Source: an uncultured delta proteobacterium (GTDB taxonomy: Bacteria; Desulfobacterota; Binatia; UBA9968). From it: DNA of 64,000 bases. Made by a program: the position numbers and the translations under genes. Location of the stretch: positions 192,001 through 256,000 of the forward strand of contig CAWDPO010000045.1 of NCBI GenBank assembly GCA_963804165.1. The letters run 5' to 3'. Positions 10,998-54,659 of this stretch are shown in pieces (the stretch's first letter is position 1; every line of letters begins with the position of its first letter). The notes under the pieces were generated by a model, which saw nothing but the letters and a program-made list of their open reading frames with translations, searched no databases and had not been told where the DNA came from.

Positions 10998-12281
10998 ATG
11001 CAAGTCGCACACTATCTAAACCAGTTCTTCGGTGGTATCGGCGCCGAGGAACACGCCGGTAGACCTCTAGAAATTCGCGACGGCGCAGTCGGACCGGGAA
11101 AGTTGTTGGAGTCTTCCCTCGGCGACGACGCGCGCATCATACTGACTTTTGTTTGCGGCGATAATTACGCGGTCGAGCATGAAGCGGAGTTGACCGCTGC
11201 GATATTGGAAAAGCTACGCGAAACACGCGTAGACCTGTTTGTCGCCGGCCCATGTTTCGACGCCGGCCGCTACGGCATGGCGGCCGGCGCACTCTGCCGA
11301 GCAGTTCAAACTGAATTAGGCATTGTAGCCGTCACAGCTATGAGCGAAGAAAATCCCGGCGTCGATCTTTATCGCGACGCGCTCTATATCATCGACTCCG
11401 GAACAAACGTCACCAAACTGCGAGACGTTGTCGACAAGATGGCCACACTCGGTAAAAAACTCATCGCCCACGAACCCATCGGCCTACCCGCCAAGGAAGG
11501 ATATTTGCGCCGGGGATGGCTGCGCGATCAGCTCGTGGAGAAGAGGGCCGCGGTCCGATTGGTGGACATGCTCGTTGCAAAGATGAAAGGAGAGCGCTTT
11601 GAGTCGGAAATGCCGCCGACTGCTTTTGCACCAGTGCCGATCCCTGCGGCGGTGAAAGATTTATCGAAAGCGAAAGTCATGTTGATCACCGACGGCGGGT
11701 TAGTTCCGAAAGGCAATCCGGATAAAATCGAGGGAACCGCCGCGACTCGTTGGGGTTCCTATAACATTGAAGGCCGCGACGATCTGCGCGCGGAAGACTA
11801 CGAAGTTTCCCACGGCGGCTACGACACAAGGTTCGTTCAGGAAGACCCTGATCGCCTCGTCCCTCTCGATGCGATGCGCGAGATGGAAAAGAACGGCGTC
11901 ATCGGCAAATTGCACGATGAATTCATTTCCACTTGCGGCCGTTCCAACCCGCTCTCGAACACGCGCCGCCTCGGTCGCGAGATAGCGGAAAAGGCCAAAC
12001 GAGACGGCGTCGATGCGATCATTCTCACCTCGACGTGAGGAACCAGCACTCGCAGCGGCGCTGCGATCACAACTGAACTGGAGAAGGCCGGCATCCCGGT
12101 GGTGCAGATTACCGCCGCGAAGCCGATCGCGAAGATGGTGGGCTCCAATCGCGTCGTCCTCGGCACCGGGATCGTACATGTCACCGGCGACGCGAAACTG
12201 CCGCCCGCGGAGGAAAAAGAGTTGCGGAGAAAACTGGTGCAAAAGGCACTGGACGCGCTGCAATCGAATGAAAAGCAGTAA
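10998..12281 (+). CDS. grdB: Glycine/betaine/sarcosine reductase selenoprotein B family, Sec at in-frame TGA 12036-12038 (U347)
   Basis: HYLNQFFGGIG, CGDNY, AGRYG, TDGGLVPKGNPD, HGGYD, DPDRLVPLD; LTST-TGA-GTSTRSG continues in frame into the track ORF 12099-12281. Confidence 0.9.
12050..12066 (+). promoter_or_regulatory. Bacterial SECIS hairpin of grdB
   Basis: Perfect 7-bp stem TCGCAGC-GGC-GCTGCGA after an 11-nt spacer from the TGA. Confidence 0.8.
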
Positions 12282-12304
12282 TTCCGGTCGCATCCATCAG
12301 TGCG

Positions 12305-12913
12305 CTAATGAGCTCCATCTTGTTTCAGCTCTGTTGCTGCAGGATTCTCGCGATCAAACTCCCACCGCGCAGGATTATCGAGAACATATTGCCGGATCTG
12401 ATTCAATGAATCAGGGTTACGAATAATATGTTCGTAATAGCTACGTTGCCACAGTTGGCTCCGAAATGATGGCCAACCGAACTCTTTCACCCCGCGAATA
12501 TATTCGTTTGTCGTCATCGTTTTAAACCATTGCACGATTGTCGGTAGGGGCGCACCTGTGTGTGCGCCCGTCGGGTGATTCAGAGGGCCGACATATAGGT
12601 CAGCCCCTACGGAGGCATCTGCAATTAAGATTATTCCGTGGAAATGATTTGGCATGACGACGAATTCGTCGGTCATGACCGCGGCGAATTTGTTTTTCAA
12701 TTCAAACCACCAAAATTTGACTGCTTCACCGGCACCACTCAACTGCATTGCGCCATTGATAATCTCGCCAAACAGACAACATCGACCCTGCGTTACGATG
12801 GTCACAAAATATGCACCGGGCGCTGCGTAGTCGTAAGCTTTCAACCTTAGGGACCGACGACGGCGCTGTAACCGTCCATCCTTCATAAAACTCTCTCGAA
12901 CCCTGGGACTCAC
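12305..12913 (-). mobile_element. REP-associated tyrosine transposase (RAYT, Y1 HUH)
   Basis: RRSLRLKAYDY..PGAYFVTI; VVMPNHFHGI (HUH); WQRSYYEHIIR; YVLDNP. Confidence 0.9.
12544..12610. repeat. REP doublet inside the RAYT coding sequence
   Basis: GTAGGGGCGCACCTGTGTGTGCGCCC...GGGCCGACATATAGGTCAGCCCCTAC. Confidence 0.85.
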
Positions 12914-44277: not shown

Positions 44278-47433
<3,156 letters not shown>

Positions 47434-47957: not shown

Positions 47958-48758
47958 ATGGCGATCTTGACCCTGCGCAACGTCAGCAAATTCTTCGGCG
48001 ACGCCGACAACGGCTCGGAGCAAGTTGTGGCGATCACTGATGTCTCACTCGACGTGAGCGCAGGGGAATTTTTTTCGATCATCGGCCCTTCGGGTTGCGG
48101 CAAATCGACGCTGCTGAGAATCATCGGCGGCTTGCTTGCCGCATCGAGCGGGGAATTGACCGTCGGCTCCGAGAAGGTCAATGGCCCGCATCCGTGGCTC
48201 GGCATGGTCTTTCAGGAGGAATCCACTTTCCCCTGGCGCACGACGCTGGGAAACGTCGAGTTCGGGCTCGAGATGCGCGGCATGTCGCAAGAGGAGCGCA
48301 GGCAAAAATCCCGCGAGATGATTCGTCTGGTCGGTTTATCAGGGTTCGAGGAGCGCTATCCGTCGGAGCTTTCCGGCGGCATGAAGCAGCGCGTCGCCAT
48401 CGCCCGCGCGCTGGTGCTCGAACCGAAGATTTTGTTGATGGACGAACCCTTCGGCGCTTTGGACGAGCAGACCCGGATCATTCTCGGTGAAGAGTTGTTG
48501 CGCATTCGCGATCAGCTCAAGCAGACGATCATTTTGGTCACGCATAATATCAATGAATCGGTGCAACTCTCCGACCGCGTGATGATCATGACTGCGCGGC
48601 CGGGCCGGGTGAAGGAAGTCGTGCCGATTGACTTGCCCCATCCGCGCGACTCGACGATCATCGCCTCGGACCGATTCGGCAAGCTCGTCGGCCAGGTATG
48701 GGGCGCGCTCAGAGAAGAATCGATCAAAAGCTTCAAACAATCGGAACAGAGAACTTAA
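47958..48758 (+). CDS. ABC transporter ATP-binding protein (NitT/TauT family)
   Basis: GPSGCGKS; LSGGMKQR; LLMDEPFGALD; VTH. Confidence 0.95.
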   Translation: MAILTLRNVSKFFGDADNGSEQVVAITDVSLDVSAGEFFSIIGPSGCGKSTLLRIIGGLLAASSGELTVGSEKVNGPHPWLGMVFQEESTFPWRTTLGNVEFGLEMRGMSQEERRQKSREMIRLVGLSGFEERYPSELSGGMKQRVAIARALVLEPKILLMDEPFGALDEQTRIILGEELLRIRDQLKQTIILVTHNINESVQLSDRVMIMTARPGRVKEVVPIDLPHPRDSTIIASDRFGKLVGQVWGALREESIKSFKQSEQRT

Positions 48759-48770
48759 GGAGGGCCGTCA

Positions 48771-49778
48771 ATGAAAACCCCAACCGGGAATCTGCGACAA
48801 AAAGTTTTATTGGGCCTATTTGTCATATTGGGCCTATTCGCCTTCGCTTCGTCCACTTGGGCCGCCGCCGCGCGCACGAAGATCATCGTCGTTGTGCCGC
48901 ACCGTATTTTGTTTACCGTCGCCTTGCCGGTGTACGTCGCCCACGAAAAGGGGTTTTATCGAGAGAATAATATCGACGTCGACGCCGTCTTCACCCGCGG
49001 CGGCGGCGAGAACGTGCAAGCGGTGGTTTCCGGCGATGCACAGATCGGCCTGGGCACCGGCACGCTGGCAGTGATCAGCGCGTTCGTGAAAAAAGCGCCG
49101 ATCAAAATCGCCGCCGCCGAGATCACCGGCATGGACGCGTTTTGGTACGTGCAGAGCAATACGCCGATACGTAAGATCGAAGACCTCGCCGGCAAGAAAG
49201 TCGCCTACAGCCGGCCGGGTTCTTCGAGCCACATGGCAGTAATGGCCATCGCCGATCAGATCAAGGCCAAGGGATTGAAACCCGCCGAGCCGGTTTCACT
49301 AGGCGGCATCCCCGAGGTATACACTGCGGTTCGCGTCGGGCAGGCCGACTCGGGATGGTCGGTGGCGCCGTTTCAGCTAGATCGCGTGGAAAAAGGTGAA
49401 TTGCGCGTGGTCGTGAAAGGCGACGAGATTGCGGCGATGAAAGAGATCACTCCGCGGGTGCATTTCATCAACAACGACTTCGCCGCCAAGAATCCCGACG
49501 CCGTGCGCGGCTTTTTCCGCGCGCAACAGCGCGCTCTCGACTACATGTTCGAGCACAAAGAGGAGACCGCAAAAATATGGATTCGCCGGGCTGAAATGAA
49601 ATACCCGGAGGCCGCCGTGCTCAAGACCTGGGACTACTACAATAGAGCGGCGATGACTCTCAAACCGATCCGCGGCCTGCAGGCAACCATCGAAGACGGC
49701 ATCAGGAACAAGTTTTTGACCCAGCCGCTCACTCAAGCGGAGATCAATAGCTTGATCGATCTGAGCTTTTTGCCCTGA
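48771..49778 (+). CDS. ABC substrate-binding protein (NMT1/SsuA-like)
   Basis: Signal peptide; A.EKGFY; DLAGKKVA...GSSS; located in the ABC operon. Confidence 0.88.
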   Translation: MKTPTGNLRQKVLLGLFVILGLFAFASSTWAAAARTKIIVVVPHRILFTVALPVYVAHEKGFYRENNIDVDAVFTRGGGENVQAVVSGDAQIGLGTGTLAVISAFVKKAPIKIAAAEITGMDAFWYVQSNTPIRKIEDLAGKKVAYSRPGSSSHMAVMAIADQIKAKGLKPAEPVSLGGIPEVYTAVRVGQADSGWSVAPFQLDRVEKGELRVVVKGDEIAAMKEITPRVHFINNDFAAKNPDAVRGFFRAQQRALDYMFEHKEETAKIWIRRAEMKYPEAAVLKTWDYYNRAAMTLKPIRGLQATIEDGIRNKFLTQPLTQAEINSLIDLSFLP

Positions 49779-49910
49779 TTGAAATCCACGGTTTGAGCGA
49801 CTTGAACGTTTTGAACAGCTTGAACGGAGTTTCTTACGTCTGAAGCTAAGCGACTCACCGCCTGGCGCCTAGGCATTATTGTTGGCGTCCTCGCGATCGT
49901 CGAAACCTCG

Positions 49911-50582
49911 GTGCGCGTGGGTTGGATCAGCACTTTCTTTCTCGCCGCACCGACGCGGGCCGCGGTTGTGCTGTTTGAGCAAATCATCCACGGCAACGCG
50001 CTTCTGTTAACCGGAATCACCCTGTTCGAAATCGCCGCCTGTCTGGTCATCGCCACCGTTTTCGGCGTGCTTGCCGGGTTTCTCCTCTGGCGCTACAAGC
50101 TGATCGGCCACAGCTACGAGATGTTTTTGGCGGCGTTATTTTCTTCGCCGGTGATTCTTGCCTATCCGATCTTTCTCGTCACGTTCGGCCGCAGCAGCGC
50201 CGCGGTGATCGCGCTCTCGTCGATTTTTGGCTTGATCCCGATCATCATGAACACCAAGGGCGCGTTTCAAAACGTCAACCCGATTTTGCTCCAGGTCGGC
50301 GCCAGCATGAAGCTGACCCGCAAGCAGATGTTCCGGCATATTCTTATTCCCGCCGTGGCGCCGACGATCTTCAGCGGCTTTCGTCTCGCGTTAACGTACA
50401 TCTTAAAATCCGTCCTCGGGCTGGAATACGTCGCCCAGGTCGGCGGCGTCGGCATGTGGTTGTCCGACGCGGCGTTCAAGTTCGAAGTGGAAGAAGTTTA
50501 TGCCGGCTTGTTCGGCACGATTCTGTTGTCGATTCTGTTTCTTTACCTGATCAACCGGAGCGAAATCTTCGTGCGCAAATAG
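49911..50582 (+). CDS. ABC transporter permease (true start probably near 49820)
   Basis: Hydrophobic; EAA-like loop ILIPAVAPTIFSGFRL; frame is open upstream to about 49824. Confidence 0.85.
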   Translation: MRVGWISTFFLAAPTRAAVVLFEQIIHGNALLLTGITLFEIAACLVIATVFGVLAGFLLWRYKLIGHSYEMFLAALFSSPVILAYPIFLVTFGRSSAAVIALSSIFGLIPIIMNTKGAFQNVNPILLQVGASMKLTRKQMFRHILIPAVAPTIFSGFRLALTYILKSVLGLEYVAQVGGVGMWLSDAAFKFEVEEVYAGLFGTILLSILFLYLINRSEIFVRK

Positions 50583-50584
50583 CC

Positions 50585-51400
50585 ATGGAACGAACCGAGC
50601 GAAAGTCCGCCGCGTTCGCGGCGCATATTCAGACGCCGTTGGGCGTGCAAGCTCTGACTCTTCTTGTGGTCGTCCTGGTGTGGGAATTTATCGGCCGGAC
50701 GGGCGTGTTGTTTCCCGAGCTCTTTCCATCCGTCCTGGAGATCTTGCAATCGCTTTGGACCTACGTCACCACGCCTTTGATGATTCCGCACATCAAAGCG
50801 AGCCTTTACGAAGTCGGCGGCGCCATTGGCATCGCAATTATCTGCGGCGTGCCCCTGGGGATTCTTTGGGGCAGCCGACAGAGCTGGCTGGAGATCGTTG
50901 AGCCGCTCATTCTTTATGCAGCCGTGGTGCCCAAGATCGTCATCTTTCCGATATTTATTTTATTCCTGGGTATCGACGTCCATTCCAAGCTCGCGGTCGG
51001 CGCCATCGCGGCGTTTTTCCCGATCTCGCTGTTGACCATAGCCGGCATGAGAGAAGTGAAAAGAGTATACGTCGACGTCGCCCGCACGGTCGGCGCCACT
51101 CCGTTGCAAATCGCCACCCGCGTCTACCTGCCGGCGATCGCCGGCCAGGTGTTCACCGGCATCAGAATCGGCATGGGCGCGGCGGTGACCGGCGCACTGC
51201 TCGCGGAAACAAAGATCGCCAAGGCCGGCTTGGGTTTCATGATCGTCGAATATTACGGCCAGTTTCGCATCGCCGACATGTATTCGCTGTTGCTGTTCAT
51301 TTTTATATTGGCCGCCCTGACCAATTGGGCGATGAAATTATTATTTTCCCGCCTGTCGCCGCTCGGCCGCGCCAATCAAGACGCCGGCATGTATATTTGA
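50585..51400 (+). CDS. ABC transporter permease
   Basis: VPKIVIFP; ARTVGA....VYLPA....FTGIRIG; GLG..I. Confidence 0.9.
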   Translation: MERTERKSAAFAAHIQTPLGVQALTLLVVVLVWEFIGRTGVLFPELFPSVLEILQSLWTYVTTPLMIPHIKASLYEVGGAIGIAIICGVPLGILWGSRQSWLEIVEPLILYAAVVPKIVIFPIFILFLGIDVHSKLAVGAIAAFFPISLLTIAGMREVKRVYVDVARTVGATPLQIATRVYLPAIAGQVFTGIRIGMGAAVTGALLAETKIAKAGLGFMIVEYYGQFRIADMYSLLLFIFILAALTNWAMKLLFSRLSPLGRANQDAGMYI

Positions 51401-51415
51401 GGGTACGAAATCTCC

Positions 51416-52186
51416 ATGAAAAAACTTCTGATTTTAATCCGACAAAGACTCGGCGCCGCACAGATAGTGCGGCGCGTATACCGCTATCTGCCTTCCGGCA
51501 AGCGTTGCAAAGAATGCCTCGTGCCGTTTTTGGGAATCTGCTCGCTGCCCTTCCGTCTGCTGCAGATCCGGCCGTCAAGAAAGAATCCCAATCTCTGCAC
51601 GCTGTGATACGAGCTCGCTCCTCCGGGCGGGGAGACGCTTGTCATTTCGGTTTTATTCGTCGACGTCCGCGGTTTTACCTCGCTCGCCGAACAGCTTCAG
51701 CCCGGAGATGTGGCCACTCAGCTGAACCGCTTCTACGATGTCGCCTCGAAGGCGATCTTTTTGCACGACGGCACCTTGGACAAGCTCGTCGGCGATCAGG
51801 TCATGGCGTTTTTCGGCGCGCCGGTGCAGCGCGCGGATCATCCCCGGCGCGCGCTTCAAGCAGCTTGGGAAATTTTAAATAGCGTGATGTCAACGAAAGG
51901 CGATGGTCTGCGCGTGGGCGCCGGCATCAGCACCGGCGAAGCGTTCGTCGGCAATGTCGGCAGCGGAGCGATGACCGATTACACCGTTCTCGGCGACACC
52001 GTCAACGTCGCCGCGCGCCTCCAGGGCGAGGCAGCTCCGGGAGAGATTCTTGTTTCTCAAGAAACCTATAGCCATGTGGCCTCGGATTATCCCAATGCGA
52101 TCCGCCGGGAATTGTTACTTAAGGGCAAGAGCGAACCGGTCGTCGCCTGGCAAATAGATATAAAAACTTCGACGACGCGTCGCTGA
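51416..52186 (+). CDS. Class III adenylate cyclase with N-terminal CxxC...CxxU motif; in-frame TGA at 51605-51607 (candidate Sec64)
   Basis: Track ORFs 51416-51607 and 51710-52186 share one frame, joined by YELAPPGGETLVISVLFVDVRGFT; DKLVGD; DYTVLGDTVNVAARLQ; LKGK. Confidence 0.85.
51609..51642 (+). promoter_or_regulatory. SECIS-like hairpin
   Basis: Lower stem ACGAGC/GCTTGT; upper stem CTCC(T)CC-GGGC-GGGGAG with bulged U; loop starts 17 nt after the TGA. Confidence 0.65.
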
Positions 52187-52462
52187 TCAGGCTTCCCAAG
52201 AAATGTGCGCAGCGACTGGTTGAAACAAAGTTTCGAAAATCTCTCCGGCGTGCATACATTTTCAGAAATCGCAAAATTCACGGGCGGGGCCCCGTGATTG
52301 ATCGTAATTGCAAATACATTGCAACTACAAAACTAATGTCAATAGTGGCTCCTGGGCCCTTTGCTGCGTTGCTATCGCCGGCTCTCGCCGCCGCTCGATT
52401 GACAGCGGCGCACCAACTCCACTAGTGTGAGGTTAATTTTTCATGACGAGGGAGATAATTTT

Positions 52463-53566
52463 ATGGAAACGCCGATCGCCGCCCGGATCATCGACGCCGA
52501 TGCCCATGTCGTCGAGTGCGCCCATACTTGGGATTTCATGGATCCTTCGGAACGGCAGTATCGGCCGATTCCGCTGGAGACCCGTGAAGAAGCGGGAGTC
52601 AAACTTCAGTTCTGGCTGATCGACGGCAAAGTCAGGGGATTTCGCTTTCCCGCGTTTTCCGCCGAAGAGTTAGCCAAGCTGGCGCAAAAAGTTGGCCGCA
52701 AGTTCGCCGACGCGCAGGAAGCCCGCGAGCTCGGCAACGTTGAGCTCCGTTTGCGCCACATGGATGAAACCGGCGTCGACGTCCAGGTGCTGCACAACAC
52801 CGTGTTCATCGAGTCGGCAACCGATCGCGCCGGCGTTGAGGTCGCTTTATACAAAAGCTGGAACCGCTGGTTGGCCGACATTTGGCAACAGAGCGACGGA
52901 CGGTTGCGCTGGTCGTGCATGGCACCGACGCTCAGTATGCCCGATGCTCTCGATCAGATTCGCTGGTCGAACGAGCATGGCGCGTGCGCGGTCATGCTGC
53001 GTCCCATCGAAGGACAGCGGTTGCTCGCCGACCCGTATTTTTATCCGATTTACGACGAAGCGCAGAAGCTCGATCTGCCGATTGCGATTCACATCGCCAA
53101 CGGCAACGCCTGGCTTACCGACTTGTATAGCCACCCGGTGCGCATCGCGTCGACCTTTCACCGCTTTAGAATTCCCACGGTGGGATCATTCAACGATATC
53201 ATTATGAGTGAGATTCACGAGGTGTTTCCGAGGCTGCGTTTCGGTTTTATCGAGGCCAGCGCCCAATGGCTGCCTTGGGTAATGCACGAAGCGCGCAATC
53301 GCTTTAGAACCCTTGGCAGAAAATGGCCTGAGAACGGTGTGCGTGAGTTGGGCATGTACGTCACCTGTGAAAATTCCGACGACATTCCCTACATCGTCCG
53401 CGAAGCCGGTGAAGACTGCCTCGTAATCGGCACCGATTACGGTCACACCGACACTTCAAGCGACGTCGACGCGATCAAAGTGTTCAGAAATCGCAGCGAT
53501 CTTTCGCCCGGCGTCAAGCAAAAGATTTTGAGCGACAACGCGCGTGCGCTTTACGCTCTGTCATAA
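52463..53566 (+). CDS. Amidohydrolase_2 family protein
   Basis: IDADAHVVE; PIAIH; FP.LRFGFIEA...W.P; GTDYGH.D. Confidence 0.88.
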   Translation: METPIAARIIDADAHVVECAHTWDFMDPSERQYRPIPLETREEAGVKLQFWLIDGKVRGFRFPAFSAEELAKLAQKVGRKFADAQEARELGNVELRLRHMDETGVDVQVLHNTVFIESATDRAGVEVALYKSWNRWLADIWQQSDGRLRWSCMAPTLSMPDALDQIRWSNEHGACAVMLRPIEGQRLLADPYFYPIYDEAQKLDLPIAIHIANGNAWLTDLYSHPVRIASTFHRFRIPTVGSFNDIIMSEIHEVFPRLRFGFIEASAQWLPWVMHEARNRFRTLGRKWPENGVRELGMYVTCENSDDIPYIVREAGEDCLVIGTDYGHTDTSSDVDAIKVFRNRSDLSPGVKQKILSDNARALYALS

Positions 53567-53645
53567 GTTCAAGGTTCCGGGTTCAACGTAGAGAATTGGA
53601 ATTCGGCGTTGAACTTTGAAATTTAACGTTGAACTGTCCAATCGC

Positions 53646-54659
53646 ATGCGATTTTACATCAACATCCTGGCGACCTACTTTCCGGATATCGATCCACCCT
53701 ACAACGTCTACTACGAGCAAATTCTTGAACAGGTGGCGCTTGCTGAAGAGCTGGGCTGGGAATGCTTCATGTTCAACGAGCACCATTTTCTCGGCTACGG
53801 CGGGCCGATAGCTAACCCTGCGGTGCTGCTTGCCGCGGCCGCGGCGCGGACGTCGAAAATTCATCTCGGCCCGTGTATCGCAATCCTGCCGCTACGCCAT
53901 CCGCTTCATAGCGCCGAGGACTACGCCATGGTCGACGCCATCTCCGGTGGACGGTTAGAGTTTGGCATTGGCTCGGGCAACACTGAGATGGACTACAAGG
54001 TGTTCGGCGTCACGAGGGAAGATGACCGCCACCGTCTTCGGGAGGCGATCGATGTCATCCTCAAGACTTGGGGCAACGCGCGGGTCGGCCACAAAGGCGA
54101 GTTCTGGCAATTCGATGAACTGTCACTCTACCCGCGGCCCGTGCAGCAGCCCCATCCGCCGATCTGGGTGGCCGGCACGTCTGCCGAAGGTCTAGGATGG
54201 GCGGGACGCCAAGGCTATCACATCATGACCGTCGGCCATCCGCACCCGCCTGAAAAAGTTCGACCGGGGGTCGAAGCTTGGCGGCAAGGTTTGATCCAAG
54301 CGGGCTACAAGCCCGAAGAAAAACATTGTCAATTTCACGCCCGCACCTACGTCAACACCAACGCCGAGCGCGCTCGTGAGACCGCGTGCGCCGCCATCAC
54401 TCGATATGACGAGATCTCACGGATCGGACGGCGATCCCTTACGGCGCCACCGGCGGAATATAACTGGGACATGATGCTCGCCACCGGCCGCAACAATTAC
54501 GGCACTCCTGACCAGTGCATCAAGAACATTCGTAACGCCATGAACAATTACTACTTCGACACGCTGACGACGACGTTTAATTTCGGCGGCATCCCCCATG
54601 CCGAGATTCTGCAATCCATGCGTCTTTTCGCCAAAGAAGTCATGCCGGCGTTCCGCTAG
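53646..54659 (+). CDS. LLM class flavin-dependent oxidoreductase
   Basis: AEELG.....EHHF; LPLRHPL..AED.A..D..SGGRLEFG.G.G; PRPVQ.PHPPIWVA; MRLFAKEVMP. Confidence 0.92.
   Translation: MRFYINILATYFPDIDPPYNVYYEQILEQVALAEELGWECFMFNEHHFLGYGGPIANPAVLLAAAAARTSKIHLGPCIAILPLRHPLHSAEDYAMVDAISGGRLEFGIGSGNTEMDYKVFGVTREDDRHRLREAIDVILKTWGNARVGHKGEFWQFDELSLYPRPVQQPHPPIWVAGTSAEGLGWAGRQGYHIMTVGHPHPPEKVRPGVEAWRQGLIQAGYKPEEKHCQFHARTYVNTNAERARETACAAITRYDEISRIGRRSLTAPPAEYNWDMMLATGRNNYGTPDQCIKNIRNAMNNYYFDTLTTTFNFGGIPHAEILQSMRLFAKEVMPAFR

Follow-up and report, generated by a model that had tools for sequence, protein, structure and literature searches.

The 64,000-nucleotide stretch of contig CAWDPO010000045.1 analysed here (the window), from an uncultured delta proteobacterium, carries a gene that translation table 11 divides into two short open reading frames (ORFs). 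We find that these two are parts of one frame of 256 codons, interrupted only by a TGA at codon 64, and we conclude from comparison with related sequences that this UGA very likely encodes selenocysteine (Sec). It is highly probable that the locus is a single gene, which would specify a soluble 256-residue class III adenylate cyclase with UGA-64 decoded as Sec via SelB and tRNA-Sec; that the gene family encodes Sec we consider at least as probable. Four things read from the sequences carry this view: the frame is continuous across the TGA, Sec and Cys codons are paired at the same alignment column, the hairpin that follows the TGA is constrained, and the set of catalytic residues is complete.

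How is the reading frame laid out? Two features define it.

51416-52186, forward strand: the whole gene of the putative selenoprotein cyclase, 256 codons, from ATG 51416 through the Sec-UGA at codon 64 to the terminator TGA 52184-52186; orthologs with 66-74% identity align end to end across the internal TGA.
51605-51607, forward strand: the in-frame TGA, read as selenocysteine (U64); TGA stands here in 34/34 lineage-A contexts, and Cys codons occupy the same column elsewhere.

Translation of the window confirmed the claim of an earlier prediction, made from its letters alone, that the two ORFs form one frame of 256 codons whose sole internal stop is the TGA 51605-51607. Under translation table 11 the frame yields ORFs of 63 residues (51416-51607) and of 158 residues, the second from GTG 51710. 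Since this second ORF starts at codon 99, it lacks D83 (51662-51664), the first metal Asp, as had also been claimed. The N-terminus too reads as first described, with C31-K-E-C34 and further on N-P-N-L-C61-T-L, then the TGA. In this genome TGA is an ordinary stop as well, terminating both the cyclase gene and the permease gene upstream. Might the true codon be TGC or TGT? A DNA contig of public run X1 spans 51590-51840, and no difference is reported in it at codon 64. The matches to public runs are contigs only, no single record spans the whole stretch, and such contigs show neither transcription nor habitat.

What occupies codon 64 in other genomes? In a first search, of 61 related genomes, full-length orthologs were found in G018, G005, G004, G007, G033, G003 and G008, each with exactly one TGA in the same column. 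The copy in G019 (L011/L076) also has the TGA and is frameshifted further on, and broken or frameshifted copies occur in G027 (L010/L073) and G029 (L015/L081). Genomes G005 and G035 are unpublished; G005 gives one ortholog row, G035 appears in tallies only, and no claim is based on them alone. A second scan, in which each species was represented by one genome, gave 35 loci, eight of which are the same stretches as loci of the 61-genome search. The record titles were Candidatus Binatia, ‘uncultured delta proteobacterium’, Syntrophobacteraceae and Dehalococcoidia, with single metagenome-assembled genomes (MAGs) titled Verrucomicrobiia, Udaeobacter and Proteobacteria. TGA was present at the column in 33 of the 35 and Cys in none, the remaining two being the frameshifted G027 and G029 copies. 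With duplicates removed, what we call lineage A, from MAGs titled Binatia and Dehalococcoidia, has TGA in all 34 distinct contexts.

The TGA extends to other lineages. Lineage B (L016, L018, L032 and L033, in G034, G012, G031 and G033) is a second group of short cyclases, about 40% identical, that has TGA at the same column; its sequence runs C-L-A-D ... C-N-R-TGA, with Asp at the second ligand position. A third TGA-bearing copy, L094 of G188, nests among Cys forms from Dehalococcoidia genomes.

The tabulation of codon 64 that had been proposed as a check showed that all close orthologs have TGA and that homologs at a greater distance have Cys. At the aligned column 18 paralog or homolog loci have a Cys codon (15 TGC, 3 TGT); some are 381-residue, membrane-anchored paralogs from the same genus, the others soluble proteins encoded in Dehalococcoidia genomes. 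Cys also stands there in 12 full-length or near full-length database proteins of 225-267 residues and 48-60% identity, one of them labelled Chloroflexota. Because the regular expression used to collect loci demanded U or C at the site, a less biased tally was made with a profile of the N-terminal module only (alignment A3), run against 1.84 billion cluster representatives. It returned 960 matches at E ≤ 1e-3 and 238 at E ≤ 1e-10. Among the best 150 there were 133 with Cys, nine short ORFs ending exactly one residue before the site, one with Ser and seven without the motif.

Do the Sec and Cys forms fall on separate branches? In a quick maximum-likelihood tree of 65 rows, 37 of them Sec and 28 Cys, built with the site masked and without the short or broken L011, L031 and L078, they interleave. 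The minimum is seven changes, and the starred branches force at least five; in one example a Sec row is sister to a Cys row with support 96. A Binatia-type clade of 23 rows is all Sec. Repeated exchange between Sec and Cys is the pattern of established selenoprotein families.

Bacterial decoding of UGA as Sec would call for an RNA hairpin, the Sec insertion sequence (SECIS), and a candidate follows codon 64.

51618-51634, forward strand: putative SECIS core, in which 51618-51623 pair with 51629-51634 as a 6-bp stem around the loop CGGGC (51624-51628), encoded by the Ala-Pro-Pro-Gly-Gly-Glu codons after a 10-nt spacer from the UGA.
51609-51642, forward strand: lower stem of the minimum free energy (MFE) fold, enclosing the core (51609-51614 with 51637-51642), seen in this genome only and not formed in most orthologs.

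The hairpin had been predicted to have two tiers. Both fold here and the upper is conserved, but the lower is not kept in the orthologs. The residues Y-E-L-A-P-P-G-G-E are conserved right after the TGA, and their codons are near-frozen: GCT in 30/32, CCG in 32/33, GGG in 34/34 and GAG in 30/30. Across the 34 lineage-A contexts, the synonymous entropy at fourfold sites where the amino acid is kept amounts to 1.3-1.75 bits in codons -20 to -1 and +10 to +24; within the hairpin the values are 0.34, 0.20, 0 and 0 bits. What synonymous variation is left in the hairpin is confined to CCT/CCC, both able to pair with G, and to a loop position, base three of the first Gly codon. For every one of the six core pairs, 29-32 of 32 sequences keep the pairing. 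The conservation that had been asked of the hairpin is thus present in the upper stem, together with constraint on its synonymous sites.

The lineage B hairpin, of unrelated sequence, begins 10 nt downstream of the UGA and has an 8-bp stem and a GGC loop; one stem pair shows a compensatory change, occurring as A-U, G-C and G-U. In the G188 copy (L094) the spacer is 14 nt, and a different 7-bp stem again carries a GGC loop. As far as these sequences allow a judgement, this structural equivalence across lineages is more telling than covariation within lineage A, where there is too little variation to decide.

How does the hairpin compare with a bacterial SECIS (bSECIS)? The bSECIS model given in PMC13188914 has an apical loop of 3-9 nt, an upper stem of 4-16 bp and a G in the first two loop positions, with 16-37 nt from UGA to loop and an MFE of ≤ -7.5 kcal/mol. 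The cyclase hairpin falls within it, with a loop of 5 nt, a stem of 6 bp and G at loop position 2. Its UGA–loop distance of 16 nt is the lower limit of the published range, and its MFE is -8.1 kcal/mol, or -14.6 kcal/mol if the lower stem is included. The window contains a second selenoprotein gene, a grdB-like (PF07355) gene at 10998-12311 whose in-frame TGA (12036-12038) stands in the context T-S-T-U-G-T-S. The spacing of the cyclase hairpin had been called close to that of the grdB SECIS, and so it is: in the grdB-like gene an 11-nt spacer precedes a 7-bp stem with a GGC loop.

Is the protein encoded across the TGA a plausible enzyme? Its catalytic part is readily recognized.

51644-52138, forward strand: class III nucleotidyl cyclase catalytic domain, residues 77-241, matched by Pfam PF00211, by the CyaB (3r5g) profile and, in Foldseek, by CyaC (1wc1).

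The PF00211 match scores 80.1 bits against a cut-off of 21.9 (E 2e-22, residues 77-241). In the PDB the best profile match, with an E of 1.1e-36, is to 3r5g, the CyaB of Pseudomonas aeruginosa, whose motif residues line up with those of the protein. An AlphaFold2 model from the 28-row alignment A2 (predicted local distance difference test, pLDDT, 87.8; predicted template modelling score, pTM, 0.83) places the class III domain at residues 71-248, and the top-ranked structure for it in Foldseek is 1wc1, the CyaC of Spirulina platensis (E 4e-19, template modelling score, TM, 0.85 by target). Residues D83, K123, D127 (51794-51796), T190, N197 and R201 are invariant in the 28 sequences of A2 and aligned with the catalytic motifs of CyaB. 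We take D83 and D127 to be the metal-binding Asp residues, K123 the substrate Lys, and N197 and R201 the residues that act on the transition state. All the class III catalytic residues are therefore present, in agreement with the motifs of an active cyclase noted at the outset. The Lys/Thr pair, presumably that of an adenine-specific class IIIb cyclase, suggests that the product is cyclic AMP (cAMP) rather than cyclic GMP. NCBIfam has no specific model for the protein and gives weak, sub-threshold cyclase matches only.

In front of the cyclase domain lies the segment that contains codon 64.

51491-51613, forward strand: N-terminal knuckle module, about residues 26-66, with C31-x2-C34 (51506-51517), C61-x2-U64 (51596-51607) and the conserved R-P-S-R-K-N-P between them.

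In alignment A2, C31 and C34 are nearly invariant and C61 and C64(U) invariant. In the module alignment A3 (30 rows, including paralogs of 25% identity), three ligand positions never vary and the remaining one is conserved to 90% or more. Since all four positions are conserved across rows down to 25% identity, a four-ligand metal site fits better than a lone CxxU redox pair. The AlphaFold2 model has a pLDDT of 81-89 over the module and shows two CxxC turns flanked by beta-bridges, with a helix between them. The module ends about six residues before the first catalytic beta-strand, which carries the first metal Asp. No Pfam family matched the module in a Pfam scan. Of the ten longer module matches that were scanned, eight have a cyclase domain after the module. 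Two of the module matches, P0212 and P0264, are fusion forms of the unit: in one, a cyclic nucleotide monophosphate (cNMP)-binding domain and a Crp-type helix-turn-helix come behind the cyclase; in the other, a MerC-like mercury-transport membrane domain precedes the module. For the Cys homolog P0006 the ESM Atlas yielded, as leads only, clusters of cyclases of 263-284 residues and of ‘hypothetical’ stubs of 98-125 residues.

Can the organism make Sec? The window's genome, 80.9% complete, has selA, a selD with an in-frame TGA of its own, and a tRNA-Sec scoring 76 bits on RF01852 with anticodon TCA. SelA was found in 19/19 of the TGA-bearing genomes tested. It was found also in genomes where only Cys forms were seen (G182, G264 and G084), so SelA is a necessary condition and not a discriminator, and we rejected its presence as one. 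The check on Sec machinery that had been proposed is borne out for selA, selD and tRNA-Sec but not cleanly for selB, which appears frameshifted in this assembly. It is present (G000 contig C16, about 140978-142867) in four frame segments.

A number of observations weigh against a functional selenoprotein at this locus, and the state of selB is foremost among them. When the 665-residue SelB of G004 is aligned there, it passes through frames -1, -2, -3 and -1, that is, through three +1 shifts in about 600 nt. A generally error-ridden assembly is not an obvious explanation, since rpoB, rpoC and uvrA of the same genome are single open frames. If the selB breaks are real, this organism is currently unable to make the full-length enzyme. 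Decayed copies of the cyclase occur in other genomes (G027, G029, G019, L080, L082 and L083), several of them frameshifted. The RNA-library contig X11 covers 51409-51599 only, with eight differences, and is possibly DNA-derived, so expression is not established by it. The hairpin, taken as a single sequence, falls short of its original description: its fold is not above chance (z +1.17, with 179/200 shuffles folding at least as well), and equal stability is reached in 195 of 15,996 sampled 17-nt windows of this GC-rich DNA. Covariation in lineage A is slight, with U-A replaced by G-U in two sequences and C-G alternating with U-G; double-sided changes occur in two pairs (three cells), a cell count reached by 55 of 500 shuffles. 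Short hairpins stand at the same place in three Cys-form loci too (L095, L096 and L100). Finally, a model of the isolated module (pLDDT 77) had no significant Foldseek match in the PDB (best E 1.1, TM ≤ 0.40); small zinc or iron modules predominate among its non-significant matches, a hint only.

Among the decayed copies, L083 retains the N-terminal stub up to the TGA, with the cyclase domain deleted next to an amidohydrolase gene.

What remains of the hairpin evidence? Because the single sequence is no better than chance, its significance comes from the comparison with other genomes, and we dropped the single-sequence statistics as support. The hairpins of the three Cys-form loci are explained by the Pro-Pro-Gly-Gly codons, which are self-complementary. 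The SECIS hairpin may have been recruited from such pre-existing codons, and the hairpin alone is a poor discriminator of Sec and Cys forms.

Might the family be one of true selenoproteins while the gene is silent in this organism, selB having decayed so that only the 63-residue stub is made? We think this unlikely. Besides the breaks in selB and the intact control genes, it draws on the relatives, in which selB is one open frame in eight of the nine with a match (in the ninth, G005, the gene runs into a contig end). There is a precedent in G027, with a frameshifted cyclase and no SelA match at 92% completeness. Yet the selB segments after the shifts remain 58-74% identical to the SelB of G004 and free of stops. 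The adjoining selA and selD are intact, selD with its TGA, as are tRNA-Sec, the grdB-like gene with its TGA and the cyclase itself apart from codon 64. Clustered local errors of the assembly are possible as well, and the genome is 80.9% complete only. The indels could be neither placed nor linked to homopolymers, the pairwise DNA alignment at 74% identity being too noisy. The conclusion about the family does not depend on this genome, since G003 and G004 combine a TGA ortholog with intact selB and selA.

If UGA-64 is translated, is it translated as Sec? In some bacteria Cys is delivered by a tRNA-Sec-like tRNA, and near-cognate read-through could likewise insert a residue other than Sec. Many homologs accept Cys at the site, and the evidence for selenium in the protein is that of sequence and not of chemistry, a further point on the unfavourable side. 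The standard form of the tRNA-Sec, found together with selA and selD, the genes that making Sec requires, and the fit of the hairpin to a SelB-type model make such decoding very improbable.

A genuine stop at codon 64, giving a 63-residue CxxC peptide and a separate, N-terminally shortened cyclase from an internal start, is the reading of translation table 11 and of public gene callers. It is more improbable still. Between the TGA and the conserved residues directly after it there is no conserved start codon; the first canonical start, GTG 51710, loses the metal-binding D83; the homologs that have Cys at codon 64 are uninterrupted; and the constraint on synonymous sites is of the kind that suits an RNA hairpin rather than a ribosome-binding site. 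A sequencing or assembly error or a lone pseudogene, for which one could say merely that single in-frame stops are often errors, is effectively refuted by the same TGA in dozens of independent assemblies from different studies and in the independent X1 contig, with the rest of the frame intact.

On the selenoprotein reading, how might the enzyme work? SelB with Sec-tRNA would read UGA-64 at the GC-rich hairpin within the ORF, and Sec would replace the fourth Cys of a CxxC...CxxC module. The four-ligand module would bind a metal (Zn or Fe), or a selenenylsulfide would form between C61 and U64, or both. The module lies directly against the first catalytic strand, and its metal or redox state may for that reason control the activity of the cyclase. 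The full-length enzyme would appear only where selenium and the Sec machinery are available; otherwise translation would end after 63 residues. That the module is a metal or redox switch of the cyclase we would put at somewhat short of an even chance. A more elaborate version is tentative: the Cys3-Sec module would be a sensor in which the selenolate makes a metal-thiolate site unusually reactive; the reversible response of this site to oxidants or thiophilic metals would switch the adjoining cyclase, and the supply of selenium would set the amount of enzyme. The MerC-type and Crp-type fusions are leads in the direction of such a sensor.

The gene is mis-annotated in public databases as a truncated cyclase, to judge from the sequences deposited there. 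Each of the 40 short database matches examined begins beyond the Sec site, in 17 cases at the Leu codon three codons downstream, and among the 120 matches listed there is no full-length protein more than 60% identical.

Is the family known? Table 1 of PMC13188914 (2026), which covers 119 prokaryotic selenoprotein families and subfamilies, has no cyclase or PF00211 entry. The word ‘cyclase’ is absent from the main texts of PMC13188914, PMC12013277, PMC13326102 and PMC9312934; their supplementary tables, including the BSepDB family list, might list the family. Full-text literature searches, judged by their listings, gave no Sec-containing cyclase. The original prediction, which knew of no described Sec-containing nucleotide cyclase, therefore agrees with what we found in these main texts and searches. 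If confirmed, the cyclases would add a new family to the prokaryotic selenoproteome, outside the 119 families of the 2026 catalogue (PMC13188914). Confirmation would also tie selenium and redox chemistry to cAMP signalling in abundant uncultured soil lineages, and would correct a systematic annotation error that has left many truncated entries without a catalytic Asp.

Among the known bacterial selenoproteins, redox or metal-cofactor enzymes form the overwhelming majority. In the cyclase, a signalling enzyme, Sec would belong to a module that is non-catalytic and probably regulatory. The locus would further illustrate the origin of a SECIS from codons, those of Pro-Pro-Gly-Gly, that were already self-complementary. 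Were the sensor reading true, second-messenger (cAMP) signalling would have its first selenoprotein sensor, one widespread in soil bacteria labelled Binatia and Dehalococcoidia.

The neighbouring genes add little. Upstream, at 47958-51400, is a NitT/TauT-type ATP-binding cassette (ABC) transporter (ATPase, NMT1-like binding protein and two permeases), and downstream, at 52427-54659, are an Amidohydro_2 protein and a luciferase-like monooxygenase. This arrangement of transporter and amidohydrolase around the cyclase is kept only within the genus, so no function can be derived from an operon. Elsewhere in the window the R subunit of a type I restriction enzyme is apparently split into adjacent ORFs at 44278-46092 and 46111-47433, the first of 604 residues with HSDR_N and SWI2/SNF2 domains, the second of 440 residues with T1R domain 3 and the C-terminal domain.

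How does the putative selenoprotein compare with known systems? With CyaC (1wc1) and CyaB (3r5g) it shares the catalytic fold and motifs, including the two metal Asp residues, the Lys, the Asn, the Arg and the Thr position. Unlike it, neither of those enzymes is a selenoprotein, and the matches to them cover the catalytic domain only, from about residue 68-75, the CxxC...CxxU module being without a PDB counterpart. The Cys-containing members of the family (381 residues and membrane-anchored in the same genus; 242-267 residues and soluble in those labelled Chloroflexota) have the same order of module and cyclase, with the four ligand positions aligned. They differ in having TGC or TGT, in most cases in having no conserved hairpin, and in keeping A-P-P-G-G-E less strictly.

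Akin to the module are predicted bacterial selenoproteins in which Sec belongs to a CxxC-type motif of the metal-binding or zinc-ribbon-like kind. Table 1 of PMC13188914 lists an FmdB-family putative regulatory protein (UxxU), a dual CXXC motif small protein, a metal-binding protein (UxxU) and a putative mercuric transport protein. None of the NCBIfam models of these proteins matched the cyclase at E ≤ 0.01. As in the cyclase, Sec replaces a Cys of a paired CxxC and a hairpin lies downstream within the ORF; in contrast to the cyclase, none of the proteins as listed there (PMC13188914) is fused to a signalling enzyme. A parallel to the hairpin is in the window itself. The grdB-like gene encodes an unrelated protein and its stem has another sequence, but the geometry of the two hairpins is near-identical, both with a G-rich loop whose Gs lie equally far from the UGA.

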